Source of the DNA: Licmophora abbreviata
Taxonomy: Eukaryota
DNA: 39,894 nucleotides
Reading direction: 5' to 3'
Assembly (NCBI GenBank): GCA_900291995.1
Contig: OLMU01000707.1
Span: forward strand, 1-39,894
The position numbers were made by a program, and so were the translations under genes. Within the stretch, counting starts at the first letter, position 1. Each line of letters opens with the position of its first letter. Under the pieces are notes generated by a model that saw only the letters and a list, made by a program, of their open reading frames with translations, made no database searches and was not told where the DNA came from. Below, in pieces: positions 703 to 31,682 of this stretch.

Positions 703-3700
703 TCACTGCTTGGTCCCAACCGCTCCAAAGATTGACGACCAGAAGGAGGGAGCAATCCAGTTGAAAGCGCTTCCGCGTAGGTACTTGCTGGCGCCTTCGT
801 GAAGCTCCTCCATAGTAACTTTGTCGTACCTGGCAATGCTCTTCACCAGCTCGTTCTTGGAGCCGTACTCCGGCTTCTTCTCGAGCTGATCGCAGGCATG
901 ATTCACGTCGAAAAGGGAATCGAGATACTTGAGCTGGTTGTGAACGGCTCGTTCAGTACAGACAGGATGCACCCGACCAGCGCAGCCGCGAGCAAGGCAT
1001 GTGCTTGGACCAACAACGGAGAGCTGGCGAGTGGGACTTGAATGAAGAGTGCAGCTGGGATCGTCACATTGCACCACGCCGAAGTAGTACTCCTTCATTT
1101 GACGGTGCACCATCACGGACACAGCATTCGAAATGCGCGCCATCACGTCCAGGTGACTGTCGGTTCCCCAGAACTCTGGGTGCTCACAGTTCGGATTAAC
1201 GCACTGCAGTCCCGATGTGACAACGTTGGATCCATTTGTGTCCTCTTTCGTGGTGAAAAACACGCCAGGAAATTCGCTCTTGACCCCGCATGACAGGCAC
1301 GTGAGCTGGAGCTTCTCTACGTCTTTGAAACGCTCCTCATCGGACAAGCATGACGCAGGGGTGTAATCCACAAGGTTGTCGTCGTCAATGTCTGCACCTG
1401 GAGCTTTCATCAAGTGGTTGTACTTGGCTGAATCCAAACCCAACTTCTCCGCGACGACGGACTGCGACATGCCTTCGATCGGCTCGATGAGACGGGACAC
1501 AGGCGGAAGGATCTGCTGCGCCAAGTACCATTCGACATCTGGCTTGAGGACTCCCCCGCTACGTGCAATTTCTTCTGGGTGCCGTGCCCGATCGACCACC
1601 GACTTGCTCTTGGATGGAGCCTCGTCTCCGAGCGGCTCCGTTATAACGTAAGGAATGTGGTCTCCAGTATTAACGGGGCGGTTATTCTTGAGAAGCATTT
1701 TGGCCACATGGACATGAGGCTGCGACCGGGCATCCGGATAGTCGTTCGGGTGTTTGCTCAAGCCCTTTGTAATGACATATTTCTCCACGGGCAGCTCTCC
1801 GTCGCGCATCTTCTTCGCGAGCTCCTGGAGGTGTTCGTAAATGTTGTTCACGACGCAATCCTTGTCGCCACGGGAGAGAATCTGGTCTAGCACGTATCGT
1901 CCTGTATCTTTAGACTGGACGCACCAATCTCGGCGAACTTGGTCGAGTCCCTTGGTTTCTTTGCCGTAGATGGGATCACCCGCTGCGTTCTTGCCCTCGA
2001 CGGTAACAGCCGCGTACTTTTTCTTCTTTAATAGCAGCATCGACTGGAAGACACCATCGATTTCTAACTCGAGCGTCCTGTAGAGACGATTGACTTCTCG
2101 TTTCACTTTTTCTCCGAGGTTGTACACTTTATCCAATTCTTTCGGTTCAGTGATGCCGGTGTTGATCATGATACTATCAGTATCACCGTAGATCACATCC
2201 AGTCCGACGCTCTCCTGGGCAATGTCCACTGTACGTTGAAGCGTCTCTCTACCCATGGCCGTGATTAGAGCAGCGATCGGTTGTGCATAGAATCGAGAAT
2301 GGGAGAAGCCGAGGCAGCCATACATGGAGTTGGCGGTCAGCTTCAGAGCTTTCTGGCGAATATCGAGCTAAATGCAGAGCATCAAACAGGATTAGAAACG
2401 GGTTTTCCGGATTGCACAAAGGGTCTCGTACTTCTTACCTCATCTTTCTTGTCACTATCTTTCTCGTTCTTCATCAGCTTCTTCACGGCGCGACGGCGTT
2501 CCACGAGACTCTTAATCACGCGTGGAAGAACACCTCGCTCGACCGACTCGTCCGGTACCGGTGGTAGGACGCTTGACGAGTTGCCATCGTTTCCAGACGA
2601 GACTTGCTCTTGGAATTGAGACCACTCCATCGTGGTAAAGCAAAGATTGTACTCCTGAATCAGAGACGGATATAGACTGTTAAAGTCGAGGAGGAGTATG
2701 AAGCTGTCGTACAGTCCTTTCTTCGGTTCCAGGACCAGTCCACCACTGTACTTGGCCTTGCCGCTTTCCCCCTTCTGCTTTCGTCTTTTCTCGGGAGGAA
2801 TGAACTTCAACTGGTGGAATTCATGAAGCAGCAAATACTCGTTGCGCTCTGCTCGATTTCCTTTCATGGTGTGAGACCAAATATTTCCTGCTACACAAGT
2901 GAGCTGCTTCGTCAACGGAAGAATTTGCAACTTGAACATGAGACGCTGGACAAGTTGGGCGTCGTTGAGGGTGTGACTGGACAGCTGCACGATCGACTTG
3001 CTGCTGTTGAACCACTGAGGAACGTCTACTGGCTCGATATCGGTGCGCTGAGTCCTCAGTTGGGTTGCAGCAAGATTCGTAAGGGAATACGTCGTCTCAC
3101 GGAGTAGCTCCTTAGCACTAATATACGTATCGCACAAGAGACGGCCGGAAAGGGCGTCCACGATAGCCCAGTCCTTGCCGGCAGAGAAGTGCGTCTTGGA
3201 AGGAAGCTGCATCTTGCGACGGCGTCCGATCTTCGACCAAGCCGAAACCTTGTGCTCGATACATCGCGACAGGAGCACTTCCATGTCGAAGCCGAAGGCA
3301 TTGTGGCCGACGATGACGTCCGGATCCCACAAGCCAATCTGCGCGAAAAGACGGCTCAGAAGAGCCCGCTCGTTCGGCATACGCTGAAGCTGGGGCATGG
3401 AACACTTGATTTCTTGATCAATGTCTCTCGGGAATTGCGGAAGAACGTTGGTCGCACTTGCCGTACCAGCGCTTCCCAGGGGTCGGATGAGAGAAATTTG
3501 AGTCATGTGACGCGTCGACTCATCTGATGCAGTATCGAGAAGCACCTGCTTGTGGCAGATCGCACTAACAGAAACGATTTCTGACTTATGAGTCTTGGGA
3601 TTCACAATAGTCTTGAACTTTAGCGACATGCTGACAACGGGCGGTGGGGGGCGGGGAGTGCCAGTCTCAACGAGATCTAGTCGAGAGATACTTTTCGGGG

Positions 3701-5622
3701 TATCCAGCTGCACTTCCAGCTTGCACCAGGAAAGAGGAGTTCTGGCAGCAGCTGGGTCGCGAATGCGGATCCAGCACGGACCCATGAGCTTGCGCTTCAT
3801 GATAAAGTTCTCCAAGGTTGATGCACCAGCGCCCAGGATCTTTTCAATGTACTTTCCACCCTCTGCACACACCTCATGTGGAGGCACGGGGTACTTCGCG
3901 TCGTAGACGACTTTAAGATACTGCGTGTCATTGCGAGGAATCGACTGGTCCTCGAACGCATATTTCCGACTGACGACCTTTCCGGCCCAAGAAGCGCCGG
4001 CGACGTGCGGAATGCAAGACGGCTGGAGAATCGACTTGACTTCGCTGTGCACGTCCATCATGTCGACGTATTCATCGGAATTGGCTTTCTTCTTCGGGAG
4101 GAAAAAGAGATTACGAAGGTTGTTCGTCACTAGTGCACAGCAGCTCACGTAGGATGTCAAAGACTTGTCGCCGACGTTCTGATCGACGGCGACCTTTCCA
4201 AAGAGGAGAATGTCGCCACTGCGTTCGACAGCATCAATCCAAAACATGTCCAGGAACTTCTCTCCGTCCTTCTCTTTTAAGACGCCCTCAAGATTTGCGG
4301 CAGCAGTAGCACCGGTAGACTCCTTCCTCTCGACGGCGATATTGTCGGGCTTGAAAGAAGCCGAGGATGTATCGACATTGGTGGGCGCAGTTGTTGCAAG
4401 AATCCGATTGTTCGCTTCAAGTGTTTCCGATTCTGCGACAGCCTTTTTTTGTTGCTCAAGAGCCGCCTTGGCTGGGGCAGAGATTCGTCCGAGCTTGTTC
4501 CTTCCAAAACGCTTCCTGGTGGTTGGGGCGGGCGTGACTTCTTCCGCAGCTCCAATTGAGCCGATGGCCGTCTCGGCTGTGGGAGATTCGTCATCGACTT
4601 CCATCGTCCCCTCCTCCGACGTCTCGGCTTGGAGTTTCATCTCGGTGGCGGTAGAATCATCAGGAACTTCTGAAGCAGACATTGTCTTCTGGGGGCTCTT
4701 GTCTTCCGCTTTGGCTAGCGAGGTCGCGGCTTCATCCTCGTCGTTGGCCCAGTCCGCATTGAGTTCGTCATCATGAAAGCCACCATCGTAGCCATCGTCG
4801 TCCTCGTACGTCGGCTCAAGTTCCTTAATACGTCGAGGCTCGCGGCGCTTTACTGGATGATTGACGGGTGCTCGAGGTTTGCGTTGACCCTGTGCTACGA
4901 CGACCTGCGCCGCCATATGTGCCACGCACACCTCGCCGACGGGAGGTTGGAGCCCGCGGTGTGCTGATAGAATCGAGTCCATCGAGGAGCGAATCCAAGC
5001 CACAAGCAGCACCACCAGAGGCTCCGATGGAGTGTGTGCGCCTAGCGGTAGACGATGAGCCGGCTGTGGCAGAAACTGCTCCGCGCTGGACGAAATCCCA
5101 CATGGACGCATTTTTGTGCGGAGAGTTGTCCTCGGTAGTGTCGTCACGCTTCCCTTTGTTGGCACGCATTGCGTTGGTTTTGCGCGCTTTACGAAGGGCG
5201 GCGTTCGTGAGATTTGCGGTCGCAGCAGAACGCTTCTTGGGTCGGCTGTCTTCCTCCTCGTCTCCAAGACGTTCCTCGCCGTCGTCGTAGTATCCGAGTC
5301 CGTCTGGGGAGGTGGAAACCAAATTTAGAAAAGTTTAGTTGTACATCGCCGAATTCGACGGGGGAAATTTCCAGCCTCTCAATCATCACATGGATGACAA
5401 AGAAATTAAATGGGACTCACCATCGTCGACTACAAAGTCCTCACGCTGGCGACGAGACTCGACCAGCTGCTGATACTCGTCTTCGTCGACGTACTCATAA
5501 ACGTCGGCTTCCTCCTTTACTTCGTACTCGTCGGTTCGCGAGACGCCTAGTCCTTGCTCTTGGCGAGAGCGCGCTTCTCGCATGGCTCGGAGCGCAGCTG
5601 ATTTCTGTGCTTTCGACGACAT
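703..5622 (-). CDS. POLA1: DNA polymerase alpha catalytic subunit
   Basis: N-terminal [30 protein letters not shown] motif; family B motifs [22 protein letters not shown] and YGDTDS; C-terminal CysA/CysB. Introns 5420-5304 and 2438-2368. A frame change near 4850-4930 is either a 79-nt intron (4931-4853) or a 1-nt indel. Confidence 0.97.
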
Positions 5623-5709
5623 GGTCACTGTCCATACATTTGCCGAATGCAGCAAAAGTGCAGTCTCACTATGTGTGCGACCTGTGACTTGCGATGGGGC
5701 AGTGGAGAG

Positions 5710-5734
5710 TTCGAAATGCTGTGCGCGCCAAAAA
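5710..5734 (-). promoter_or_regulatory. E2F-like site plus CHR-like element upstream of POLA1
   Basis: The minus strand reads TTTTT-GGCGCGC-ACAGCAT-TTCGAA, about 90-110 bp upstream of the ATG. Confidence 0.6.
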
Positions 5735-6169
5735 TTTCTCGCACTGGGCGAGCGCGCACATCTTCCATAAGTAAGAACTGTCATTGGTCCTGACTCGACT
5801 CGACTGACTCTCACACTCTCTTCATTGAGCGATGATACATGATACTGGTACCAGTTATGAGAGTTAACCACCATGCCGCTCATAAGAAGATGCATTTAGA
5901 CCTTAGGTGACGGTACGACTTGCTGCAGCACCGGTGTAGATCTCTAGAAGCAAGCTGATTTTGAAGCAGAGTCCGATCTTGCAAGACGAAGACCGGAGAG
6001 ACCGTACAAGACGATGGTGTCGTACGAGTACAAAATCGCCGACACAGACATACATAGATACTAGATTTGATAGATTTCTGTCATCATATTCAGGTCGTCT
6101 CAAAGCAGAACGCGGCTTCTCGCACCGTCACATCATAGCGCGCTACGATTACACTCAGACTTGACCAGT

Positions 6170-9100
6170 TCAGCTTGCATTCGCAGTCGCTTGTGTTCCA
6201 AACTCAAGAGTCTGCTGGGATGGCCCACCAACTTGAGCCCCCTTCGCGGGTGGTTTCATGCGGTGAATCTTCAAGGTTGGAGACGGCGTCAAGCTCGAGA
6301 CGTCCTGCGGGGTGATAAAGATGAACTGACGATGCTTCATAGTCTGTGCCGTCTCAATCTGCATGCCGTTGGCGACGAATGGAGAGTTAGACACGGTTTG
6401 GGAGCGTCCGCTCGAATCAAAGCGCTGTCAAAAAAGGGCAGCGCAACGTGCTTACCAGTTGCTTCATGGCGATCTTACGGGAAACCGGATCAAGAAAGAC
6501 ATCGAACTCGTCCATCACACGAAAAGGTGTCTCAAGCCTTTCCCCGAGGGCAAGGAGCAGTGCGAGTGTTGTAAAACTTCGCTCGCCGCCACTGTGGTGA
6601 AAATCAAGAGCACAGTGCGAATAGTTAGTCAAAAATGCAGTCGGCAGGCACACCAGAATCCTAGAAGCGAACCAACCTGAGCGCCTTGACGTCCTTAGTC
6701 TGGCTCGATTCCTGCGTATTGTCTTTTTGGACGACGAGATCAAGGGCACCTGCGACGTGGTCGAATTCCAGCTCTCCGGAACTGCCCTTCGTGTTGAGAA
6801 TTTCGTCGAATGTGGTGTTTGTCATCACCGAGATGTGCTCCTGAAACTGTTTCCATCGGCGCTTGCGATCTCTGAGATCAGAAGTCAAGAGTTTCTCGTT
6901 CTCTTCAATCTGCCCAATCTGGTCCATCCTGCCTTGCAAGATTGTCTTCGCTCGACTGAACTTCTCGTACGCAACCGCTGGGTCAGTTTCGACGAGCTCA
7001 CGCCTCACCGTTTCTTTCTCCAGCTGCTTCTTCGCACGTTCGGCCTTGGTCTTGTAGAATGACGACTCCTTGGGATGATACACGGGCTCGATGGCCGCGA
7101 GCTCCTCCACGGTTGGCCCGTCCTTTTCTTCTCGCTCACTGTCGTGGGTCGTTTCGCCTGCTTCCTCCGCTTCCTTCTTTTTACGATCGGCGTCGCGTAC
7201 GAAATGGAGCAGCCTAGCCTTTCGAAGAGCTTCGAGACTTCCCGTGCGAGCCTCCTGCACGTTTGCTTCTTGCTTGGAGATGATCTCATCGATTTGCTGG
7301 ACTTTCGCGCGCTTTTTCTGAATCTGGACCTCCCGCTGGGACATTACACGCATATGTTCCTCCAACGATTCCTCTGCCTCCTTCATGTCAGCGAGCACCT
7401 TCTCGTTTCGTGCCGTCACTTCCTCCAAGCGAGCTCTCGTTTCGTCGACAGCTGGTGAAAGGTTTTTCATTTCCTCATTGATCTGAGCGGCCCTTTCTTT
7501 CGTCGCCTCCACGATCTCCTCCGCACTGCCAACGTCGGCCTCAAGTTCCGTTGTGTCAATGTCGACATTGGCCGACTCTTCCGTCTCGGCCCTCAAATCC
7601 GAGATCTCCTGCTCCAAGTGCTCTAGACGAGCTGTCGACTCGAGATGTTCCTTTCGCACTTTGTTCCATGTAACTTTGTGCGCCCTCTGCTCACTAAGAA
7701 CTGACTTCTGGTCCGCCTGTCGCTCTTTCAGTTCATTTTCCAACTGAGCAAGCTCGCGCTTGGCCGAGTTAAGCGCTGCCGTTTTGTCGGCGCCAATTGT
7801 CGTCCTCAAAGGGTTCCTGCTGTCGCGAGAGATCATGGAGCGAGATCCCCTGTTGACCTTCCAAAAGTCACCGTGCGGCAAAAAGTACACCTCCTTGATG
7901 TTTCCGCGGATGGCCTCGCGGCCATGGCTGTCTCGGATGAGAAGACTTCGTTCGCCAGAGTCCTTGGAGTCGGCAAGGGCACGTTGGTCGATACGACATT
8001 GATCGACAAGGACGTTGAAAACGAGATCATTAGCAACATTGAGGCAACTGGCGACAGTTTCAACATCTTCAGTGGGCGGAGGCGGAACGCTGTATCGAAG
8101 CGCGGTGGCCGTCTGATAGACGCTGCATTCCCCACGCCTGCAGCCAACATCCTGCCGCATCTTCATAAACAGCTGACGGTCGGCATCGTTCGTTACGATG
8201 AAGCGATCCAAGCTTCTGCCGCCCATTGCCAGCTCCGCAATTGCAGCGAACTGTTCCTTGCCGTCGGCCACCTTGACGTGCGCGCCAATGGGACCAATAA
8301 CCTTTCCACTCCACTTTCCGTTCCGACGAGCCGCCTCGACGAGCTTGTGCAGCGCAGCACATTTCGGCCCAAAAATAGCGAGCGAGTCATTTCCACTTGC
8401 ATTGAGATCTCGAACCTTGTGTTCGACAGCGGTGACCTGAGACTTGAGCGAGCCAACTCGCTCCTTCGCGCTGTCGACGCGGGGTTCGAATTCTTCGTAC
8501 CTGCGGTGGCTCTCGCTGATGGTCTGTCGTCGGAGCTGATCCGTGCTGCGAAGCTCCTCGAGTTCTTTCTCGCTCTCTTCCAGTTTAGCCGCACGCTCTG
8601 CTGCGACGGTCTGGGCGGAGCCAGCGGCCGCACGGATCTTCTCGCGTTCCTCCTGCAAATACCCCTTGGCGCCCTTCAAGTTGGCCTCGGCCTGGCGGAG
8701 CTCCTTCTTGACCGCATCGAGCTCACGCTGCTTATGTTTGACGGGTGCCACGGCACGCTTGAGCTCCGACTCCAGATTTTTCTTGTCGTCCGCCGCCGCT
8801 TTCGACTCGTCAATGAGCTGGTCAATGCGATCCTTTCGGCGTTCCTTCTCGTCGTCGGGGCCGTTCGTGAGGCTCTCAACCTGCGTCATTTCCTCGATGC
8901 GTTTTTCGCGCTTCTCCTTGAATTTTTCTAGTTTCTATGGATGATGTAGAGCGAAGGAGTGTGTTGGAAAGGTCGAAGGGAACCAGAAGCACGAAATCGA
9001 CACCGGTTGCAACTTACCGTCTCCTTATCGGTCGTCTCCTCCTTGAGCTCGCTGTAGTACGCCCACGCGTAATTCACTTTGAGATCTTCTACTTTATCCT

Positions 9101-10106
9101 GAAGCTTTTCGAGTTCCTGAAATTGCTTCCACTCGTTCTTGAGTTCTTCAACGTTCTGGACCGCCTCCTGCATGGAGTTCTGCACCTTGGTCTTGAGAGA
9201 GATGAGGTCGTTTAGATTGTCAGTGACGGCGGCGTAGGATCGGTCAATGCGTTCGAGCTCTGTGGCCTTCATGAAGAACGTGTACTTGTCTTCGGCCTTT
9301 CCCGTGAGAAACTTCTTGGCTTCTTCCTGGTCCAAGACGGCCACCGGATTCTCCACTTGAATGTTGAGCTGGTCGAGCATGGCGTCGAGATCCTTTTTCT
9401 GGCGGCTTACTTCCTTGCCATCTTGAGACAAGAGCTTGTATCCGTTGTAGCCGCTTCGAAGAGAAATCGTTCGTTCGATAGTAATCTCATCACCGTACCG
9501 GTCGTGTTCATAAGCGTCGTTTCCCTTGTTAAGAATAGTCACGCGGACCTTGGCTCCGCTACAGTTCTCGCCGGCCTCCTTGCGAACTAGATCTTTCAAG
9601 TTTCTGGCTCGGTGTGTACGACGAGCACCCGCCCCGAGGCAGATCTGAACGGCAGCAAGGATCGCTGATTTCCCGCTGCCATTTTGGCCGTGAATAAAGT
9701 TGACGTTCTCGCACAGCTCCACCGTCAACTGAAGATATCAGCAAGAGTGACGGCAGTGCGATACAGTACGTGAGTTCCAGTATTCAAATTGGGGCAAAAT
9801 TCGCATCATCTGGTCATTTCTCAAGTCTTTCTTTACCTTGCGATGGCACATGAAGTTTTCAACATAAACTTTGGAGATAATTCCAGCTTCCGGAGAGCGG
9901 CCTTGATGGTTGAGGCGTTTGAGGGGGGATCGTACTTCTTCTTCGTCGTTCAAAGCCCCGTCGTCCTCGTCATAGTCCACAGTTTCTCTGTTTTCCTTGT
10001 CTTCCTCGGAAACTCGAGGGCGTCGGGCCGCAGGGGGACTCGCACATGCGTCTTCTACCCCTCCCGCGGTGGGGCTGTCTGCTTCGGAAGGCCGTTTGCT
10101 TCCCAT
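6170..10106 (-). CDS. SMC6: Structural maintenance of chromosomes protein 6
   Basis: VENFMCH, Walker A GQNGSGKS, coiled coils and hinge, signature LSGGERSF, Walker B PFRVMDEFDVFLD, QFIFITPQD. Introns 9836-9729, 9017-8935, 6676-6592 and 6455-6359 give one continuous frame. Confidence 0.95.
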
Positions 10107-10181
10107 CGTCGTGTACAAGTGCGCCGTGAATGACAATGCGGAATGCGGCAAAGTTCCAAGCGAGATACCTGTATCATACGG

Positions 10182-10257
10182 GGCGCGCCAAAATCTGAGA
10201 GGAAAACTCCGGGTTTCATGTGACGTAGATGATTAATTTCAAACGCGATATCGCGCC
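10182..10257 (-). promoter_or_regulatory. E2F-like site and GGCGCGA-N7-TTTGAA composite element upstream of SMC6
   Basis: The minus strand has GGCGCGA-TATCGCG-TTTGAA (10257-10238) and TTTTGGCGCGCC (10193-10182). Confidence 0.6.
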
Positions 10258-10392
10258 TCTCGGAAGAACCAGCTAGTCTACTCTATGCTCACATGTTCAC
10301 AGTATCATACCGGGACCAGGTAACACGATGTCTACCAATTTTTACAAGCCTTACCCAACCGCTACCTAGCGACGCCTCAATTTTGGATATTC

Positions 10393-12839
10393 TCACATGA
10401 TTGGCCGATTGGAAGAGTACTCGCGAACTGATCCGTCGGCAAGTGTCAGTCGCAGTGTGCCCAGACTCTCACTGTCCATGTCGTCGTCATTCCAGTTCCC
10501 TTCCCATTGGTCTCCAGATGCAAACATGCATGTTCCAGTTCCCTTCCTCCTACCATCTTCAAATGATCCAACGTATACATTGCCATTGGCGTACTTTTTC
10601 GTACCGAACCCGTCTGGAAGCACAATTACGTGGAGGTCTCTCTGAGACCGACGCTCGTTCTCCGAAAGCACACGAGATTGCCCGGAGAAGATACTGCCGT
10701 CACTATAACATATTCTCCACTTTCCATTCAGGGGGTCGTCGTTGCTAAACATGCCTTTGCATAGTGTGCCCTCTGACTCGCACTTGACGACGCCGAATCC
10801 GTGCCGTTTCCCTTGTGAAAACGATCCTTCATAGCAAACCGTATCTAGCGGGTTTGAATCGTTTCGAGTCATCAATATGCCTTCTCCGTGGTACATCCCG
10901 TTCTTCCACGCACCCCGATATATGACTTTGCCTCCCGCCTTGTCAAGCAATGTCCCTATGGAGCCATCTTTCTGTCCATTGAAGAAACTCCCTTGGTATA
11001 CTCGACCGTCACTCATGGTTTCCATTCCTCCTCCGTGCCGAAGCCCACCACGCCATAGGCCAACATAGACAGTCCCGTCGCGTTCACAAAGCGTTCCTTT
11101 CCCTTCAAAGACACCTTTCCGAAAACTGCCATGGTACGAACTGCCGTCGCTCAAGATGAGTGTCCCTAAGCCATGCTTTCGATCGTCCCAGAATTCGCCA
11201 GCGTACTTGCCATAGTCCGCGTGAATAAGAATACCATATCCAGAACGAAGACCCTTGTGAAACTCGCCAGTATACGTACACCGCGATCCCTTGGAAACGT
11301 ATACACCATACCCTATCCGCTGGTTGGTACAAGAATCCAGTGCTCCAAGGTACGTGTCGCCGTTGGCGTAGGTATGAAGCTCGGCTCGAGTGTCCTTGGA
11401 ACTCCGATCTGTTGGCATGCTATTTTGACGCGGTCTTCTACGAGACTGCCCTGTGTCTGGCATCTGTCCATATTCGGTGTCGCTCGTCCGGTGAGCAATT
11501 ATGTGGAGTGACGTCTCGAGTGACTTTGCCATAGCCTGCTTGAGAAAGAGGAGTTGTTTATCACGCTTGTTCCCTTCCTCGTCGTCTTCGTCGTCATCAA
11601 CTGAAGCTTCTACTCTCAGTGTCGTCGCGATCTCGCAGAGCGTGCCATCGGTCTCCTCGAGAAGACTCATGCTCACGTTCATGTCTTCTGACCACGTCCC
11701 TGAGAATTCGGTTCCATTGGCGTCCGATAAGATCCCATTACCGTGTCGACGTCCTTCAACAAAGTTTCCTGAGAAGGAGTCGCCGTTCTTGTGCGTGTAA
11801 ATACCATAACCGTTTGGCTGGTAGGTTTGCACTTCGCCGACGTATGTGTCACCGGACGGATAGAGGAAGCGCCATCCGTTACCATCAACAGGCTTTCCCA
11901 CGAGCCACTGTCCCTCATATGTTATGCCATTACTCAACATTTTAAGTTGTCCATGTCCATGGCGTTCGTTGGCAGCAAACGCTCCCGTGTAAACTTGCCC
12001 AGTGGGCGTCCACTCGGTCCCTTCACCGTGCTTGAGACCCCGTCGATAGAAACCAGAATGAACGTATCGATTGGTCCAGCCGTCGTCTTCGTTTTCGACA
12101 CTTCCTGCGTTACTAGACGTGTCCACGTCGGTGTCTTCTACGTCAACATTCCGTTTGAATGTCCCGTAGCCATCCCTCGCCCCGAGCCTGAACTCCCCCT
12201 GAAACTCTCCAACGTCTGGTTCTAGCTCTCGCCCCGTTCCATGCATGAGCCCTTCTCGGAACTCTCCGGTATATTGATATCCGCTAGAATGAACCAGTTC
12301 TCCGCTTACGTCATGAAACAGCCTGTTTTCAAAGTGTCCCCGGTACGTGAATGTATCCGTGACCAGCGTACCGTACGCGGGTCGGTCGTCTACATAGGAC
12401 CCAAAATAGTTGGCTCGGAGAACGAGAGGTTGCATGTCAGTTTCGAAGGACCAATGAGTTCTCCCTCATCGCTCGATGACTGTTCCTGTATGCCTGGCGT
12501 GGGATGTGATAACCTTATATTCTTGACGAGCGCACCGTCTCCATGTCGATGTCCATTGTTGCAAAACGGCCCTTCGTAGATCTCGCCGGTCAGCACGTAC
12601 TTGCGCGTCCCATGGAGCGGCTCTCCAATGATACCATCAATCAACCCTGTGAATGAATCAAACTTTTCCTCGACGATCAAGTTGGTTTCGGGATCTTTTG
12701 CTGGCAACTTCCTGTCCACTACTTGTCGGACGGGCACACCGAACTCTTCGGCATGAAACGAGTTCGTCTCAGCGTTGTACGAAGGCGTGAGACCGAGTAG
12801 CTCAAAGTCGGATATCGCATTCTCCGCCAGTCCTTCCAT
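10393..12839 (-). CDS. Large MORN-repeat protein (frame discontinuity near 12460)
   Basis: Many YxGxF/WxxGxxHGxG repeats lie in two blocks separated by an acidic/low-complexity linker. Upstream ORF 12390-12839 also has a MORN unit (YEGPFCNNGHRHGDG) and overlaps the main ORF in a different frame. The start is uncertain. Confidence 0.8.
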
Positions 12840-13357
12840 TTTAGTAGAGAGTACTTCAGGGGCAGTCTGGGCAATTCTACCGGAACTGGTAGCTCATACC
12901 GTCGTCGCAAACGGCCCACACAGGTATCGAAATCCCATCGGCCACTTTCAATTTTGACACTTCTTCGAACTTATTGACATTTTCTACGGGTCATTCTGCA
13001 GTGACCCTGTCGGCGCGCCAAAACTGGATGACGGAAGGACGCCAACTTTGGACTTGCGAACCAAATCACAAATCACGAACTCCACAAAACTTACTCGTAC
13101 ATACTCCGATAGTACACAAAGTACGCAACAGGACCACATACTTCGTAGTAATTGACCACAGCCCACATCGCAAGATAACACCTGCATGTGATACGATACC
13201 TGGTATCATACCCGTCTGTCTTCCATAAGGGACAAAGAGTAGTGCGATAAGCTTTTGGACTGCAGAGGTCTTGCTCGTTGACAGTAATAGTCTTGGATTG
13301 TACAATCGCATCGAATTGAATCGAATCGGCTACTTCGCTTATCGATCCCCCGGCACC

Positions 13358-14455
13358 ATGGCAAAAAAGAAGGTGCTCTTGATGGGCGAAGCCCACAGTG
13401 GCAAGACGAGCATGCGAAGCATTATTTTCGCCAACTATTTGGCGCGGGATACCACGCGCTTGTCTCCCACACTCGACGTCGAGCACCACCAAGTCCGCTT
13501 TCTGGGTGGACTCGTCTTGAATCTATGGGACTGTGGAGGACAGGATGCTTTCTACGAATCGTACTTTGAGCGAGACCGCGAAACCATCTTTCGGTCCGTC
13601 GAACTCTTGATTTACGTTTTTGATATTGAATCCAATCAGCCCGAGAAGGACTTTGAGCATTTCGAGGGAGTCCTGCGAGCGATCGCTGAGTCTTCGCCGG
13701 ACGCCCGTGTCTTTGTCCTGATCCACAAGATGGATCTCGTTGCGCAGGAGGAGCGGGAGCCGATTTTAGAAGAGCGACGGGCCTTGATTGAAGACAGCTG
13801 CACTCGTTGTGGCGTTGAGAGCTTTGAAACCTATGGAACTTCGATTTGGGACGAAACTCTCTACAAGGCGTGGAGCGAGATCGTCACTAATCTCATTCCC
13901 AACATTAGTTTGCTGGAGACGCACTTGAACAATTTTTGCCGTATTTGTGAAGCCGACGAAGTCGTTCTCTTCGAGCGTGCAACCTTTCTCGTTATCAGTC
14001 ACGCCCAAGCCAGTGATGGGTCCATTGAGGAAGGGGGATCTGGCGACCAGATGGAAGATACCGAGACGGCAGATGCAACTACGGGAGACGATGGGACAGC
14101 TGCCGACAAGCCGGCGACGCTTGCCGACTCTGGTACACTGACGACTGCTCCGTCGACGACCGTCACCGTCCGCACACCACCGCGTCATGTGAGACGCACT
14201 CCACACTTTGATGCACATCGCTTTGAGAAGATAAGCAACATTGTCAAGCAGTTCAAGTTGAGTTGCGGCAAGGCACAGTCACAGTTTCAAGGCATGGAGG
14301 TTAGGAACAGTCGTTTCACTGCGTTCATCGATGCCTTTACGGTGAACACATACATCATGGTGATTGTTTCGAATCCCAACGTGCACACGGCGGCGACTCT
14401 TTTGAACATTCAGAATGCACGGCCGCATTTTGAGCGCTTCATTCCGAGAATCTAG
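13358..14455 (+). CDS. RRAGA: Ras-related GTP-binding protein A/B (Gtr1), TORC1 amino-acid signalling
   Basis: [67 protein letters not shown]. Intronless. Confidence 0.95.
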
Positions 14456-14534
14456 TGTATATATGTGGTAAAACGAAATAATGTAGTTTGCATGTTACAG
14501 TTACCAAGGATGGGTCGACGCCCCATTGCATATT

Positions 14535-14927
14535 TTAAGTTAGATTCTTCCAGTTGCGCCCTTGCTTATCAGACTTCAGTCCAGTCGCCGTTGGGTATCG
14601 TACATCTTGCATGACAGGTTCTGGAACTGGGGACGAGATGCCATAGGCCTTTACTTCCTTGCCATTCTCTCGAAATCCCATGAGCCGTCCACGTGTATCT
14701 TGCAAAACGACGAAGGAAGCAAAGGTGAATCCGATTGCAGATGCGACCGACGCGGTTGGTCCGCGTAGCGGTTTGCCCATGATGTAGCCATAGCCCCAAC
14801 TGGCAGAGGTGATACCAGCGGCGACCGCCCAGTCCCTGAAGCGCATTGAGCGCAAGCAATCATCGACGGAGGGATCCGGTTTCACTACTGGATACTCGGG
14901 ATCACTATACTTTCGAAAGGGCTGCAT
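14535..14927 (-). CDS. Mitochondrial complex I accessory subunit (NUXM/21-kDa, plant MNLL-like family)
   Basis: YPVVKPDP, two hydrophobic segments and the QDTRGRLMGFRENGKEV motif typical of the family. Confidence 0.8.
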   Translation of the reverse strand: MQPFRKYSDPEYPVVKPDPSVDDCLRSMRFRDWAVAAGITSASWGYGYIMGKPLRGPTASVASAIGFTFASFVVLQDTRGRLMGFRENGKEVKAYGISSPVPEPVMQDVRYPTATGLKSDKQGRNWKNLT

Positions 14928-15666
14928 GCTGTAGGGTGTGAAGCGGGAAGAAGGCAAAAAGAATTAGGGTGGCGATACAGACGGCGGCGTACAGGTGCCC
15001 ACACGGGTGGCATAGTGTTCGCTCACACAGAGGCTCAAAGATTTCCCATTTCTGATGCTTTTTCACTGTTTCTTTCGCCGCCAGTATTTCAATCAGCGAG
15101 ATAGAGAGTATAGCAACACTTACATGAACGAAAGCGACCAAATATCCTTCAAATACCACAGCAATCTTCGGCACACACTCCTTCGACGACTTGCTGCGTT
15201 TCTCTGCGACGCATTTGCCCACAGGTACGCCTGATGGCGTAGGAATCAGTACAAGTTCTACGTCACATGGCAATATGCGGACGACAGACAGGCAGAAAGT
15301 CCGTCCATACACCCCTCAACCTCAAAACCTACCTTGGGTGGGATGCGTTTCTGTTTCCCTCTTGGCGATCACTTGTGAAGCATCTACTGGTCTACTCCAG
15401 TAGGACATGCTCAATACAGTACGCGATTGTGTCTTTCCCTTAACCTTAGGTTGGGAAATCTTCGGGATTCCACTACGGTCGCGACATTGGTAGAGACTGT
15501 TTCGAAGACTAGAGATTATCGAACTCCGTCGACTACAAGTAAGAGGCAATACCAACTGGTTTGACCATTTATTTATATTCTAACGGTAAGGTACGGTTGA
15601 ACAGTACTATCTAGGAAGTAAAAGAAGCTTTGCATCTTGTCGCGGCTCATCTTCAGTTGGACGCGC

Positions 15667-15969
15667 TCACTCGAGTCCAGGAGCCAGCAGAAAAGTTGCG
15701 TCTGAATACGGTTCTCGAAGCTTGATGGCCGATTGGTATTCCTCGGACTCGTAAAAGGCCGTGGCTGCTTCAAACGACTCAAATTCGATTACCACTGCGG
15801 CGCTACCACCAGCAATACCGTTGACGCTTTCGGGAATACTCGGTGTTGGACACTTCACGAGGAGCTTGCCGGGGTGATTTTTGAGAACTGAGGCGGCAGC
15901 CTCTTGGTAAACATTAAAGTGGGCTGGGTCGTGGACCTTGACGAACGCGAAAAGGTATCCCTTGGACAT
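15667..15969 (-). CDS. DUF1330 family dimeric alpha-beta barrel protein
   Basis: 100 aa, intronless. VHDP..F..Y and VVIEFESFEAATAFYESEEYQSAIKLR match the DUF1330 pattern. Confidence 0.85.
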   Translation of the reverse strand: MSKGYLFAFVKVHDPAHFNVYQEAAASVLKNHPGKLLVKCPTPSIPESVNGIAGGSAAVVIEFESFEAATAFYESEEYQSAIKLREPYSDATFLLAPGLE

Positions 15970-16367
15970 GGTGTTGTTGTGATGGTTTCTTTGCGGAAAG
16001 AGTATATATGATATTATCAGAGTGTTTGGAATTGTGGGAACCTGCGCTCAAAAAATAATGTATGTCGGTGGAACAACATTGAATAGTGTAGAAGCCACGC
16101 ATCGGTTTCCCGCTTCTGCGAAGCCCCAAGAACTGCACCTCTCAAAATGCCTAAGCAAGATTTCAGGAAATTCCAGATGCTTCAACGGAAAGCCATCATG
16201 TTCTTTCTGTTGTAGCAAGGAGGTGATCGAGCGACAGTTCGGTGGGTACTCCTACATCAGGAAGCACTTGTCTTACGTTGATGGTGCTGTGACATGGCCT
16301 CAAGTCATGTAAACAGGTCGAGTTGAAACAATCGTTAAACGCTCTTGAGTCCTTCGTCAGACCTGCT

Positions 16368-16994
16368 TCAATAAGAAAGTCGAAGTCTGGCAGAATCTAC
16401 TCCGCCATTGCATTGCTCCATTGCTCGCAGAGCGGCCAAGAATCCTAGATTTGGGTTTGCCTGGGGTCGCACTCGTCGAATGGTGTCCATCGCTTGGCCG
16501 AGAGTGCGTTCCTTTCGTGATATAAGCCATGCGGCCAATGCAGCAGTCGAGCGGGAGACACCTTTTGCGCAGTGGACCAAACATGCGTGAATATCAGTAG
16601 AAGGTTCATTATTTGCTTGCTGGCCACCATTGTCAGAGTACCCTTGACTTTCGTCGATTGCGTCCAAGACGCAATTCAGTTCCGGTGACAAGAAGTCTTC
16701 GCCTACCTTGTCGGACAGTCTCCAAACAATCTGCTCAATCCATAAAGCTGTGGATCGAGCATCAGCGATAAAGTCTCGAGAAATCTGAATCAAACGTTCA
16801 TCAGAGACTATCGTAATTACTGACAAACGTATCGTCTTCGCATCAGAGCCGCCGTCGCCGCTGTACACCGAGGCAAGATGCGACAGCGCTGCCAAGCTCC
16901 CGATCCACAAGCCTGGAATCACTTCGCCCATGCTCGACAAGCGAGAGGCGCTTGAACCGAGTTTTGGGGTCTCCTCGACACGAGATCTTTCCAT
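16368..16994 (-). CDS. Dual-specificity protein phosphatase
   Basis: EVIPGLWIGS, catalytic loop LVHCAKGVSRS, and RPQANPNLGFLAAL. Confidence 0.9.
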   Translation of the reverse strand: MERSRVEETPKLGSSASRLSSMGEVIPGLWIGSLAALSHLASVYSGDGGSDAKTIRLSVITIVSDERLIQISRDFIADARSTALWIEQIVWRLSDKVGEDFLSPELNCVLDAIDESQGYSDNGGQQANNEPSTDIHACLVHCAKGVSRSTAALAAWLISRKERTLGQAMDTIRRVRPQANPNLGFLAALRAMEQCNGGVDSARLRLSY

Positions 16995-17398
16995 GGTTGG
17001 GCGTGTTGGGCAGCTTGCCTTGGATCAAAGAGAAGTAAGTCAAAAAGAACATGCAGGAAGCATCAAGTCGCGTGTTGCGCGACGTCTGAGATACGATGAC
17101 TCTTCGAGTACCGGTTTTTTAAACCAATAGGCATTTCGAAATGTCTTGAAGTTTAATTGAAACTGTCACTCGGATATCACAGTCCGATACCACGTTTTGT
17201 GACTCAAATACCATCAAAATTCGATCCGGTGTGTTCCACTAAGACGCGACTAATACAATGCGAAGCCCATGTCTCACCCACAACCACATTCACGCAATCA
17301 AATCCCACCTACAACACTCACTGACTAACTATTCTAAGCCAAGAGCAAGCACACTTTGACCCCGCAGTACATAAAGAAACTGACCAAGGCACGACAAC

Positions 17399-18355
17399 AT
17401 GTCTCAAAGTGCAAACCCATGCTGCGAATGTCGGCCGTGTTGGTAAGCTTGTTGTATCGCTGACTGGTTCGTCTCATTCATCAACATATGACTCATTTCG
17501 CAGTACTCCTTCTGTCCTACTAGCTCCTATCCGAACGGCAATCGCAACATATTTGCGACCATCACTGTCATCCTGTCGTACATTCTAACATTGTTCACAA
17601 TCTATGGCTGCCACTACGTCGATGTAGATCCGAGTCAAGTTGTCGACCGTAATCTTCCCACCGAGAGGAACTTCGGATTTGGACTATATACTCGAGAGCA
17701 TGACTTCAACTTCGATGACTTGGAGAGCGAATGGGAAGACTGGGACAACTATGCGTGCTATTCCTGGAAAGACGTGGAGCAAGACGCTTTGTTTGACTCC
17801 AAATGGCGAGCGGCACGCGCCATGGGACAAATAAGTGCGGTCCTCGGTTTCATCCTGATGATACTGACGCTAGCCATGGCGTGCACGAGCTTTTCGTCTC
17901 TTGTCGTGCGACTCATGGCTTTGGCGGCGTTGCTCGCCAGCGTGTCAGTTCTGCTCACCTTGGTCGCCTTCGCCTCCGACATTTGCAACGACTTTCACTG
18001 TGATTTCAGCGACAGTGCCGGTACATCAATTGCCGCTAGTTTCCTCTTCTTCGTCTCGGCCTGTTTACTGGCTGCGATTTCTACAACCGAAGCTTTTGAC
18101 GGTCCTCAAGCGCCTGCTACTCCAACCGGTCGGCCTGTCGCTGCTGTAGTGGAAGGGAGTATCCAGCCTCCCGCCGGATCCGTCACCGTGACAGAAACAG
18201 TACTCCCAGATGGCACAAAAAAGTTTTCTAAGGTCATATACAATGTGGACGGATCCAGGACGGTGCAACAGACTGTGGAAAGGCCGAATAGTGTGGTCGT
18301 TGACGTTGACCCCGAAGATGATGAACCATGGATGGTCCCCAACAAAGTCGTCTAA
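17399..18355 (+). CDS. Four-TM claudin-superfamily-like membrane protein, paralog 1
   Basis: Micro-exon MSQSANPCCECRPC, then intron 17443-17523 (GTAAGC..TAG). Four hydrophobic helices, a first loop with FGLY and a Cys, a WRAARAMG motif and a second loop C-x3-C. Confidence 0.7.
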
Positions 18356-18699
18356 GTCAAAGCGTTGCCATGAAATCGGATGTGATAGTATCGGCTAAAT
18401 TGTAACGACTTAAAGGGAGAATGTTACGAGTGCCGGGGTACCAGAAGTGTCATAACTTTAACTTAAATATGATAGCTGCCAGGGGTTTGCTGAAGCCTTT
18501 GGGCATTCGCGATGATATTCTGAACGCACATTAGGGACAAGAATCTTGAATCTTGCGAACTCGGACCCAATCTTGTGAAATTGAAAATCGCGCACACACC
18601 ATCCGTTGGGAAGTTGAGAGTTGACACCGAAATAGACCGCGTGACTCGAAAGTTCGATAAAGGTTGCTGCTTTCTGGTCGAGGAAGACTACATTTGACC

Positions 18700-19701
18700 A
18701 TGACAGAACGCTACGGATGTCAGGGATGCTGGTAAGGGTCCAAGCGAGCCAGGGCTAATAAATTTTGATTGTTGTTTTGAAAAGCGACTGGGCTCACTGA
18801 ACACTGGCTCAATCCTGCGAATTCTCTTGTCCTTTGTCAACACCAGCTCGTTTCCCAACGGAAGGATGGCCGTTATCGGCATGCTTTTCGCTCTAGTTTC
18901 TTATGGAATGACGTCCAGTGCTGTGTGGGGCTGCCGTTATGTCCTACTAGAGGATGTGGATGTTGGTTTCGGACGTGTAAACGGCAAGATAGGCTTGGGA
19001 CTTTACTCAGTCGAAGACGTCTTTGATGACAGGGAATGCAGGGTTTGGTCTGACTTTGGAAATGAATTTATTGTGGATGCGACCTGGAATGCCGCGCGTG
19101 CAATGGGAACAATTGCGGGCTTCTGTGGTCTCTTTTGTCTGGTATGTGTATGCTATTGAGAATATGAATCGCCAATCATCTCATCGGTTCTCACGCACAC
19201 GCTTCTCCCCACTTTTACTGTAAAAAGGTTGCAACGATTTGCTCTGCGTGCATGGGGCTTCGAGTTTGCTTTCTTAAAATCCTTGCGGCCTTCGCCGCTT
19301 CAGCGGGAGTCTGCGTCATACTCACGGAGATTGTGTTTGCCTCCAACGTCTGCAACCAGGACATCTTCGGATCTGGCTGTACGTTTGACGTACACGCCGG
19401 TATTGCCATTGGTGCGTCAATCTTGTGGTTTTTTACGACTTTTATCCTTATGAAAGTGCCTCCTCCTGCAGAGATTGAGGATGAGTACCCTCGTCCCTCA
19501 AGCGCGCCCACGATGGCGACGGCCGTTGCTGGCAGTGTCGCTCCTCCCCCTGGAACTGTGACTACGACCGAGACAGACCTTCCGGATGGCACCAAGAAGA
19601 TCACGAGGACGACGTACAATTCCGATGGGTCAAAGACGGTCGAAGAGACGATTGAGACTCCCAATATGGCGATTCCGACCGCGAGTGCAAAGACGTACTA
19701 A
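18700..19701 (+). CDS. Four-TM claudin-superfamily-like membrane protein, paralog 2
   Basis: Micro-exon MTERYGCQGC; introns 18732-18846 and 19142-19227. Shares S[YF]PNG, GLGLY, WNAARAMG, FASxxC and the C-terminal LPDGTKK..YNxDGS motif with paralog 1. Confidence 0.7.
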
Positions 19702-19978
19702 AAACTGTGCGCGATTACCAGGTCGCTTGTCCAACTCGCGTTGTGCAGTGTTCCTGTTGTTTTCCGTGGTAGGGCTTTGTCTTGAGCTTAAACTGTAGGG
19801 TAGACGTATAAGCATGGCCAAAGGTACCAAGTACGAGTACATTACGAGTATAGTAGTGCGAATATGAATTGGGTGGGTTCCAGGTAGACCGACTTTTTCA
19901 CGTTCGCGTGGAGTTCGCGCAGACAGAAGAGTGAGATCTCGATAGACACAGACTTGCTTTCTCACAAACAGCAGAAAT

Positions 19979-19998
19979 GGCGCGACGCGAGATTTGAA
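19979..19998 (+). promoter_or_regulatory. GGCGCGA-N7-TTTGAA composite element upstream of POLD3
   Basis: GGCGCGA-CGCGAGA-TTTGAA lies about 130-150 bp upstream of ATG 20126. Confidence 0.55.
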
Positions 19999-20125: not shown

Positions 20126-21589
20126 ATGACTAGCTACAGTAGCGACCAGGTGGAAGAAGTATGGAGCTGGATTCACGACGAGAGGCGCTGTGTGACGACA
20201 CAGACGGTCTCTCTCACGATGGGCCTACCGAGGACGGCAGCGGCGTCTTTGCTCCAGAATCTTCCGAGCTACAAAGAGAATGACTCTATATATGAGTGCA
20301 CCAAGTGCTGTCTAGCCAAGGAAGACGGTGCAACAGGTGAGAGAAGTGGGAAAATGGCCTGAACTAGCAGAACTTGAGTTTTTGAGGCTCGGCAGTTTTC
20401 GTCTACCAGGTACAGCACTGATGTATTCACTTACGCCCTCTTGTTCCCCTCTGCGCTCCCCCGCCTTGCAGTAGTTAAGCTAGTCAAGTCGACCGTAGAT
20501 GCCAAGGACACCGTTGACACGTCTGATGGCCCGATTTATTCCATCGCGCTCGTCCAAGCCGAGACACTCCGTGCCGCACATCAAAAGGACATGGTCATGT
20601 TTCGCGACATGCTGCAGTCCGACACGAACCAGGCCCTAGACAGTGCCTTGCACACGCACGATGTTGTGCCATCTGTAGTCGATCAGATTCAACGCTTGGA
20701 TCTAGAAACGAGTCGCGAGCAGCGGGGTACAGTCGCGGCGCCTCGGGCCTCGGGTACTAGTGTAAGCACGGCCGGCAAGATGCAAACGAAGCGCAAGGCC
20801 ACGTCCGCCGCGTCATTTTTTCAAGCAAAGAAGACCAATAATGCGGATGCAGCAAAAGAGGAAAAGGCGAGTAGTGTCTCGGCTAGTAACAGTCTAACCG
20901 TCGGCACCAAGAAGGCCGGTGCGACCAAGCCGGCTGCCAAGAAGGAATCGTTGGGCACAAATTCCAAGTCGGCTATTCGCAATCCGGTGACGTCCAAAAA
21001 GGCGGACGGCGTTGAGGAGCCCCCGCAAGACGATGCTAGTGATAACAACCCAGTCGACTTTTCTGAGAAGGAGAACCAGACAAATGGGTCTGCCGATGGC
21101 AAGAAGCCTGCGGCTGTCGGCAACGCCGACGATTTCGTCGGAGACGAAGATGAAGACGAAGAGTTCCTGGTCGAAGAGGAAGAACGCAAGCGTCGCAACG
21201 AAAAAAGCGAGAAACAGGAGGGGGAATCGAAGAATGAAGCGAAGCGCGTACCGGCTCGTCGCGTCGTAGTCGCTGATGATGCCGACGAGGATGAAGAACC
21301 GAAAGTCATGGGTGCCATGGATGCTTTTGCAACCGTAGTGAAATCTCCTCCCAAGGCTGAAGCAGCCACGACTCACCGGAAGCGTCGTAAGACTCTAGTT
21401 GATAGGACGACAACTGACGCTCAGGGTTATCTACACACCGAGACGATTGCCGTATGGGAGGATGTACCGTCGGACGAGGAAGAAACGGAAGCAGCAGCGG
21501 AACCGGTGGATCGGAAGAAGGTCGCAGCCAAGAATACCAAGAATATGAAGCAAGGAAATCTAATGGGCTTCTTTCAAAAGAAAAAGTAA
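20126..21589 (+). CDS. POLD3: DNA polymerase delta subunit 3 (Cdc27/Pol32/p66)
   Basis: Winged-helix-like N-terminus (WIHDERRCVTTQTVSLTMGL); intron 20337-20471; charged disordered middle; RKRRKTLVDRTTTDAQGYLHT (DPIM-like); terminal PIP box QGNLMGFF. Confidence 0.88.
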
Positions 21590-31310: not shown

Positions 31311-31682
31311 TCTGGTGAGTATTAGGAGCGCAAGAACATGTAGTGTGTAAGAAAAGGGTCGATTCGAGGTGAGAAACCAATCGTTCGTTTCATATGGTCA
31401 ATGATGCTGCTGACATGATGTTGTGTTCATGGATTTTATGAACGCAATCTTGAATGAATCAATCTGCTCGGCGTCGTTTCGCTCTTTGTTTCAGAGGCTC
31501 ATAACCGTTGTGGGGCGCGCACATTGCTCGCTCACAGCCACGAAAAAGTTGCGCGCGCCAAATATTGCATTTCGAATTTCGATTCGCGATGTTGTTTGTG
31601 TGATGACGAAGAGATTGATCACAGTCGACGCGTCGGAACACCTACAAGCTGTCGTGCAAGGCTTTTGTGTCTGATAATCACC

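Follow-up and report, generated by a model that had tools for sequence, protein, structure and literature searches.

Upstream of three genes in a 39,894-nucleotide contig of the diatom Licmophora abbreviata (GenBank OLMU01000707.1; hereafter the window), encoding POLA1, SMC6 and POLD3, an E2F-type core (GGCGCG followed by A or C) is followed at a constant distance by TTYGAA, a form of the CHR (cell cycle genes homology region). An earlier note on this DNA had read the arrangement as a DREAM-type cell-cycle module that defines a DNA replication and repair regulon. Is this composite a real promoter element, and if so, of which genes? We examined the whole 29.2-Mb assembly (7,734 contigs) and found that a fixed-spacing composite of the two halves is, with near certainty, a real promoter element in this genome, and that it marks a broad, mostly housekeeping gene set, not replication genes in particular.

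The evidence for a fixed spacing came from genome-wide counts. GGCGCG-N8-TTYGAA matched 45 times, compared with 8 matches for the reversed pattern and ~18 for each other spacer, and many of these matches ran on with AA after the core. With the pattern GGCGCGAA-N{0,18}-TTYGAA, 22 of the 42 genomic matches fell at a single spacer. When both halves were relaxed to their known consensus, GCGSSAA-N6-TTYRAA matched 179 times (15 times reversed), and GCGSSAA-N{0,14}-TTYRAA gave 537 matches in total, which left a mean of 25.6 for each of the other 14 spacers. Counted from the end of GCGSS, the spacer was 8 in 41 of the first 100 of these 537 matches, 7 in five and 9 in seven. This single sharp peak bears out the idea of a fixed spacer but not the length first assigned to it, which was 7 nt; counted like for like from the hexamer core, the spacer is 8 nt, and the contrast that had been drawn between 7 nt here and 4 nt in mammals mixed two ways of counting.

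The consensus of the 179 genomic sites is (T)GGCGS(G/C)AAA-N4-R-TTYRAA. We built a scoring matrix from 106 of them (the remaining 73, among them four GCGGC variants and a TTTAAA site, lay outside this set), which has the form t-G-GCG(C/G)(G/C)AA-A-N4-R-TTYRAA-a, with information confined to positions -2 to +19 and with the four spacer bases near random. Positions that the query had left free were nonetheless biased (T at -2 in 47% of sites, G at -1 in 64%, A at +7 in 69%, and a purine before the CHR in 79%). The CHR hexamers comprised 46 TTCAAA, 40 TTTGAA, 19 TTCGAA and 1 TTTAAA, against a near-equal background, and this order of TTCAAA and TTTGAA over TTCGAA fits the TTYRAA consensus of LIN54, in which an all-GC centre is disfavoured (available text of PMC4974476). 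The reading of the halves as E2F-type and CHR-type sites is supported, as both fit the consensus even at degenerate positions. The consensus proposed earlier, GGCGCG[A/C] plus TTYGAA, had captured both halves but stopped short of the AA(A) that follows the core and of the R that precedes TTYRAA.

The composite lies in promoters and has a direction. Using a codon-bias classifier that called nine of ten held-out loci correctly, we found that coding sequence in the sense direction lies downstream at 74 of the 91 sites whose flanks were long enough (strict: 32 of 35), compared with 306 of 600 random positions. This excess of sense coding sequence indicates that the composite is a directional promoter element, in which the E2F half usually comes first and the gene after. 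We also considered an A-box/B-box reading, the arrangement of tRNA genes and other RNA polymerase III templates, and rejected it because such boxes lie much further apart and because the genes that follow encode proteins. A few composite matches in GC-rich overlapping frames (at two loci) may stem from contaminant contigs; the assembly probably holds such contigs, because it contains a bacterial-looking dnaN/recF-type locus (contig C1053).

To name the neighbouring genes, we scanned predicted frames against Pfam. At the first 45 sites the scan covered 119 of 128 frames downstream (the nine omitted were window genes) and 126 of 131 frames upstream; at 84 further sites it covered 143 of 161 frames (short alternative frames were dropped); and 12 of 86 extended frames were scanned as well. 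By hand tally, ~55 of the 106 sites had a named neighbour, with about half of the targets lacking a Pfam name. Among the named targets were NMD3, RPC82, RPS3, ThrRS, eIF2A, PRP19, TAF12, MED31, Nas2, LAMTOR5 and SIR2, as well as several transporters, methyltransferases and metabolic enzymes.

We then returned to the window itself. All three 20-nucleotide elements are present exactly where the earlier note had placed them, on the strands it gave, and their position upstream of an inferred ATG (with distances measured from the 3′ end of the element) and the names of the three genes hold as well, the latter supported by Pfam domains and diatom SMC6 homologues (Table 1). The Pfam matches in POLA1 are DNA_pol_alpha_N, DNA_pol_B and zf-DNA_Pol, and the closest relatives of the SMC head are diatom proteins, several of them named SMC6, with 72% identity to an Odontella protein. 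The exact pattern matched three times in the window, compared with 0.01 matches expected from 100 dinucleotide shuffles, a figure that is inflated because the pattern was derived from these same three sites. Freeing the spacer to 2–14 added only a fourth match, at 1127–1141 with a 3-nt spacer, which we rejected as a promoter element because it sits within POLA1 coding sequence.

Table 1. Coordinates and supporting evidence for the composite sites, E2F sites and genes discussed in the text.
Feature	Position	Strand	Evidence and details
Composite, POLA1 promoter	5710..5729	-	E2F core, 8 nt, TTCGAA; 16.2 bits; 87 bp before ATG at 5622
T5-GGCGCGC, POLA1 core read as stand-alone T-tract E2F site	5723..5734	-	Sequence
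POLA1 (catalytic subunit of DNA polymerase alpha), several exons	703..5622	-	Pfam PF12254, PF03104, PF00136, PF08996
Composite, SMC6 promoter	10238..10257	-	E2F core, 8 nt, TTTGAA; 20.6 bits; 131 bp before ATG at 10106
Second, stand-alone E2F site TTTTGGCGCGCC, SMC6 promoter	10182..10193	-	Sequence
SMC6 (mapped part: exons from the 5′ end and centre)	6661..10106	-	Pfam SMC_N; diatom SMC6 homologues
Composite, POLD3 promoter	19979..19998	+	E2F core, 8 nt, TTTGAA; 16.7 bits; 127 bp before ATG at 20126
POLD3/Cdc27, two exons inferred	20126..21589	+	Pfam CDC27, E = 3.4e-16
Composite in an orthologous SMC6 promoter	L151:9579-9598		~176 bp before first in-frame ATG; 41% GC diatom contig

Scored with the matrix, which was trained on sites outside the window ranging from 17.7 to 28.9 bits, the three sites ranked highest in the window (the next scored 13.7 bits), a ranking that is partly built in because they had been chosen for the same two halves. 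Only the SMC6 site fell within the training range, with POLD3 and POLA1 below the lowest training site, and none of the three carries the full AA(A) after the core. The three are thus weak members of the class, and the earlier note had spotted the right architecture from marginal examples. Perhaps, then, the window sites are ordinary E2F sites that happen to have TTYGAA at a spacer of 8, with the true composites being the AA-bearing sites elsewhere. In favor of this possibility, sites that lack the AA, a subclass that includes all three, were in only slight excess genome-wide (23 sites versus ~17 expected, P = 0.09, or P = 0.25 once the window sites are excluded), and the POLA1 core has the T-tract typical of stand-alone E2F sites, reading as the T5-GGCGCGC type seen at MCM and SMC promoters. 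Against it, all three replication-gene promoters of the window have the very spacer that is enriched genome-wide, and the SMC6 site, the best of the three, also agrees with the consensus at four positions that had not been selected (A at +5, A at +7, G at +12 and A at +19). On balance we consider a chance origin of the sites to be the less probable explanation, and because it concerns the window only, it is compatible with a DREAM-like reading of the composite as a class. Taken singly, the SMC6 composite is likely to be functional, and the SMC6 promoter probably carries both kinds of site; the intermediate POLD3 composite has a slightly better than even chance of being functional; and the POLA1 composite, the weakest, lacking both AA and the purine preceding the CHR, is doubtful. 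POLD3 and especially POLA1 are probably weak or chance members.

Elsewhere in the window, positions 31551–31592, upstream of an NAD-binding/CIA30 gene, hold a palindromic E2F core with a nearby TTCGAA, as well as a one-mismatch composite with a spacer of 8 on the minus strand (12.3 bits).

Conservation was assessed at SMC6. An alignment of the SMC6 head led to 65 metagenome loci in 46 clusters (many short or transcript-like), from which we tried 24 orthologue promoters and kept the 21 in which 200 bp or more preceded the first in-frame ATG. An E2F-type site was found in 13 of these 21 promoters, compared with 3 of 23 coding controls, and the composite with a spacer of 8 in just one (Table 1). 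E2F control of SMC6 looks conserved among diatoms; the composite at SMC6 may not be. A broader count across all 309 kb of the dereplicated metagenome loci from diatoms yielded two matches at the peak spacer, both within SMC6 coding sequence by position, and was uninformative because ~2 matches would be expected even at the density of this genome. Contigs from four sequencing runs matched positions 5300–10500 of the window only in short, patchy stretches; one of them, of low depth, covered both SMC6 sites with few differences, all of them outside the sites, which is too little to use.

If the composite is a DREAM-type site, the genome should encode proteins that could bind it. A survey of the E2F, DP, RB, LIN9 and TCR families found E2F, DP, RB, LIN9 and tandem-CXC genes. 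The five E2F_TDP loci comprised two E2Fs with a CC-MB match (below the family cut-off in one of them), a third E2F-like frame, one DP, and one two-domain DEL (contig C3586). RB was present with both A and B pocket domains, along with a DIRP (LIN9) gene and seven TCR loci. The TCR protein of contig C1413 aligned with human LIN54's DNA-binding domain (PDB 5fd3, E = 1.9e-21) and kept both KLYC/KxYC tyrosines as well as the RNPxAF hinge. One TCX/CPP protein (contig C3012) had three CXC repeats, one more than is usual.

We consider it probable that the composite works like a DREAM site of the type formed in animals by a CDE (cell cycle-dependent element) and a CHR, and predict that it is bound by a diatom DREAM-like complex. 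From the motif, its spacing, its promoter location and orientation, its mix of targets and the presence of the genes, all of which are observed, we infer the binding proteins and their geometry as follows, repression and activation being equally a matter of inference. An E2F/DP dimer would read (T)GGCGS(G/C)AAA, TTYRAA would be recognised by a LIN54/TCX protein that has tandem CXC domains and belongs to a MuvB core, and a rigid bridge, probably an RB-related protein together with MuvB, would fix the halves 8 nt apart as counted from the core. The spacer exceeds that of mammals by 4–5 nt and that of the worm by 6 nt, or about half a helical turn (at ~34 degrees per base), so that both DNA-binding domains would approach the helix from roughly one side rather than from opposite sides. 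The complex would act at the proximal promoters of at least ~150 mostly housekeeping and growth genes, and replication genes would depend mainly on the stand-alone T-tract E2F site.

Several observations weigh against such a complex. There was no peak at the animal spacings, with spacers of 2, 3 and 4 accounting for 3, 3 and 8 of the first 100 of the 537 matches. In mammals the targets of CDE/CHR sites are late cell-cycle genes (available text of PMC4176359 and PMC5716687), whereas those of the diatom composite are mostly housekeeping genes, with no kinesin, cyclin, APC or kinetochore family among the ~55 annotated targets. Among the SMC6 orthologues only 1 of 21 had the composite, although this count concerns one gene in distant diatoms with crudely placed ATGs. 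Moreover, the DEL protein and the six further TCX proteins allow other pairings.

The last point leads to an alternative in which the partners are non-canonical: a two-domain monomer of the DEL/E2F7-8 type or a lineage-specific TCX protein (such as the one with three CXC repeats) that cooperates at the fixed spacing without an RB/MuvB bridge, or one bipartite factor that recognises both halves. Atypical E2Fs favor sites of the TTTCCCGCC type. The two-domain DEL protein and the seven TCR loci, one with three CXC repeats, provide candidates for such partners, and the E2F half of the composite (GGCGSGAAA) is unlike the palindromic T-tract site of replication genes. Against this alternative, none of 20 reading frames from 13 E2F and TCR loci contained both domain types, and worm DREAM peaks, as described in the available text on them, show the same GGCGGGAA half beside the CHR. 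We regard non-canonical partners as unlikely and favor the DREAM-like complex.

If the composite is a general promoter element, which sites serve the replication genes? POLA1 and SMC6 are adjacent and POLD3 lies 10 kb away, forming a replication/repair gene cluster (703–21589), and it was because of this clustering that the motif appeared replication-specific. Finding three such genes in one 40-kb window, where 0.06 sites are expected, has a genome-wide chance of ~0.03, and RAD51 and a Ku subunit also carry the composite. The wider set of targets does not bear out a regulon. Repair and cell-cycle genes were found at 3 of the 106 composite sites (RAD51, the Ku subunit and alpha-tubulin, with a SUN-domain gene borderline), no polymerase, PCNA, RPA, RFC, RNR or ORC family appeared downstream of the scanned sites outside the window, and SPT16 was the sole replication-related gene among the divergent neighbours of the first 45 sites, which were scanned to allow for a composite acting in the opposite direction. 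In addition, the composite was found in none of the nine MCM and SMC promoters outside the discovery set, which belonged to MCM2, three other MCMs and five SMCs (subunits other than MCM2 being assigned by N-terminal signatures). One of these MCM promoters was just 124 bp long, and three further MCM loci were omitted because contig ends cut their promoters. The claim that the composite defines a DNA replication and repair regulon is accordingly very improbable. The spacer and the target set likewise place the composite outside the canonical DREAM CDE/CHR class.

A better candidate for a replication regulon is the stand-alone E2F site, TTTTGGCGCGSC, which matched the genome 143 times, compared with 15 times when reversed. 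Eight of the nine MCM and SMC promoters had an E2F core without the composite, mostly with a T-tract. Seven of the first 29 distinct TTTTGGCGCGSC sites (121 of 123 frames scanned) adjoined replication-type genes, namely an MCM, two SMCs (one of them SMC6 itself), a MutS homologue, RPA3, a SNF2 helicase/REX1-B pair and a cyclin, a proportion significantly higher than at composite sites (P = 0.0008 per site, P = 0.011 per gene). Considering this enrichment together with the lack of composites at MCM and SMC promoters, replication genes use mainly E2F alone. The site also lies upstream of DP and of two TCX genes, which suggests feedback, and close variants lie at an E2F gene and at a third TCX gene. 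Within the window, TTTTGGCGCGSC occurs on the minus strand both in the SMC6 promoter (10182–10193) and at 13012–13023, between a MORN-repeat gene and RagA. Another copy in the genome, on contig C64, adjoins a diatom frame with a strong match to HopJ (Pfam, E = 1.2e-40).

Transposons can give rise to motif pairs with fixed spacing, but an origin of the composite as a dispersed-repeat relic (such as the terminal repeat of a miniature inverted-repeat transposable element), or from a pair of elements each positioned on its own with respect to the transcription start, is highly improbable, because all-against-all blastn of the flanks (~320 bp, 106 sites) aligned nothing but the motif itself (at most 37 bp), because the spacer is near random and no information extends beyond the motif, and because independent placement predicts a broad peak rather than the 1-bp peak observed.

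These results provide two defined promoter elements for diatoms, the composite with ~150 sites in excess of expectation and the stand-alone E2F site with ~130, both of which are ready parts for diatom promoter engineering. If DREAM does bind the composite, there would be DNA-level evidence of this complex in stramenopiles, and the CDE–CHR spacing, which in animals is at the closest sterically allowed distance, would have shifted by half a turn, with a bearing on how MuvB and E2F/DP are bridged. A more speculative possibility, which we put forward tentatively, is that diatoms or this lineage have rebuilt DREAM as a same-face complex that serves a few hundred housekeeping genes as a general promoter mark or as a switch between growth and quiescence, with a separate E2F/DP site driving replication and chromosome genes and thereby splitting 'growth' from 'S phase'.

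How does the composite compare with known systems? We found no description of it in diatoms in the literature that we searched, a search with most subscription journals beyond its reach, and the available portions of PMC11267843, PMC4392632 and an oomycete motif preprint contained no such composite. [quoted passage not shown] In plants, TTCAAA is bound by TCX5, a repressor of the recombinase gene DMC1 (PMC13674478); in the diatom, it is RAD51 that carries the composite. The accessible parts of these plant and Cylindrotheca studies do not describe a fixed-spacing composite of E2F and CHR, although the logos or supplements of the preprint might show one.

In the accessible text on the mammalian CDE/CHR and E2F/CLE sites, an E2F-type site lies upstream of TTYRAA at a fixed spacing near the gene start, as in the diatom. 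LIN54 binds TTYRAA through two tyrosines, with lower affinity for an all-GC centre; the CDE is often 4 bp upstream of the CHR, with 3–4 bp being the closest spacing without a clash, and in a model E2F-DP occupies the face opposite to LIN54 (PMC4974476). The 4-nt rule and the use of the CHR in both orientations are features of mammalian CDE/CHR sites (PMC4176359, PMC5716687), and the diatom shares the second of them. The mammalian spacer is 4–5 nt shorter than that of the diatom, depending on how the CDE is delimited, and measures 3–4 nt when counted from the GGCGSG core. Mammalian S-phase genes have E2F sites without a canonical CHR (PMC5716687), like the MCM and SMC promoters of the diatom.

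The C. elegans DREAM complex (DRM), again judged from the accessible text, offers a further comparison. Its peaks carry TTKRAATTCCCGCCAA, in which a GGCGGG core is followed by AA and then by the CHR, and TTTGAATTYCCSCC, at ~2,000 sites (PMC8552245), and the motif is given in the methods of a second study as BSSSSSNNNTTYRAA (PMC10113156). Both halves (TGGCGGGAA and TTYRAA), the polarity, a single fixed spacing and occurrence at many promoters are common to the worm site and the diatom composite. The worm spacer, however, is 2 nt from the GGCGGG core rather than 8 nt, the diatom adds a preference for a purine before the CHR, and the worm site is backed by chromatin immunoprecipitation, whereas the diatom composite is known from sequence alone. 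The diatom composite is probably a DREAM-type site, one that combines the same halves with a new spacing and a broad set of targets.

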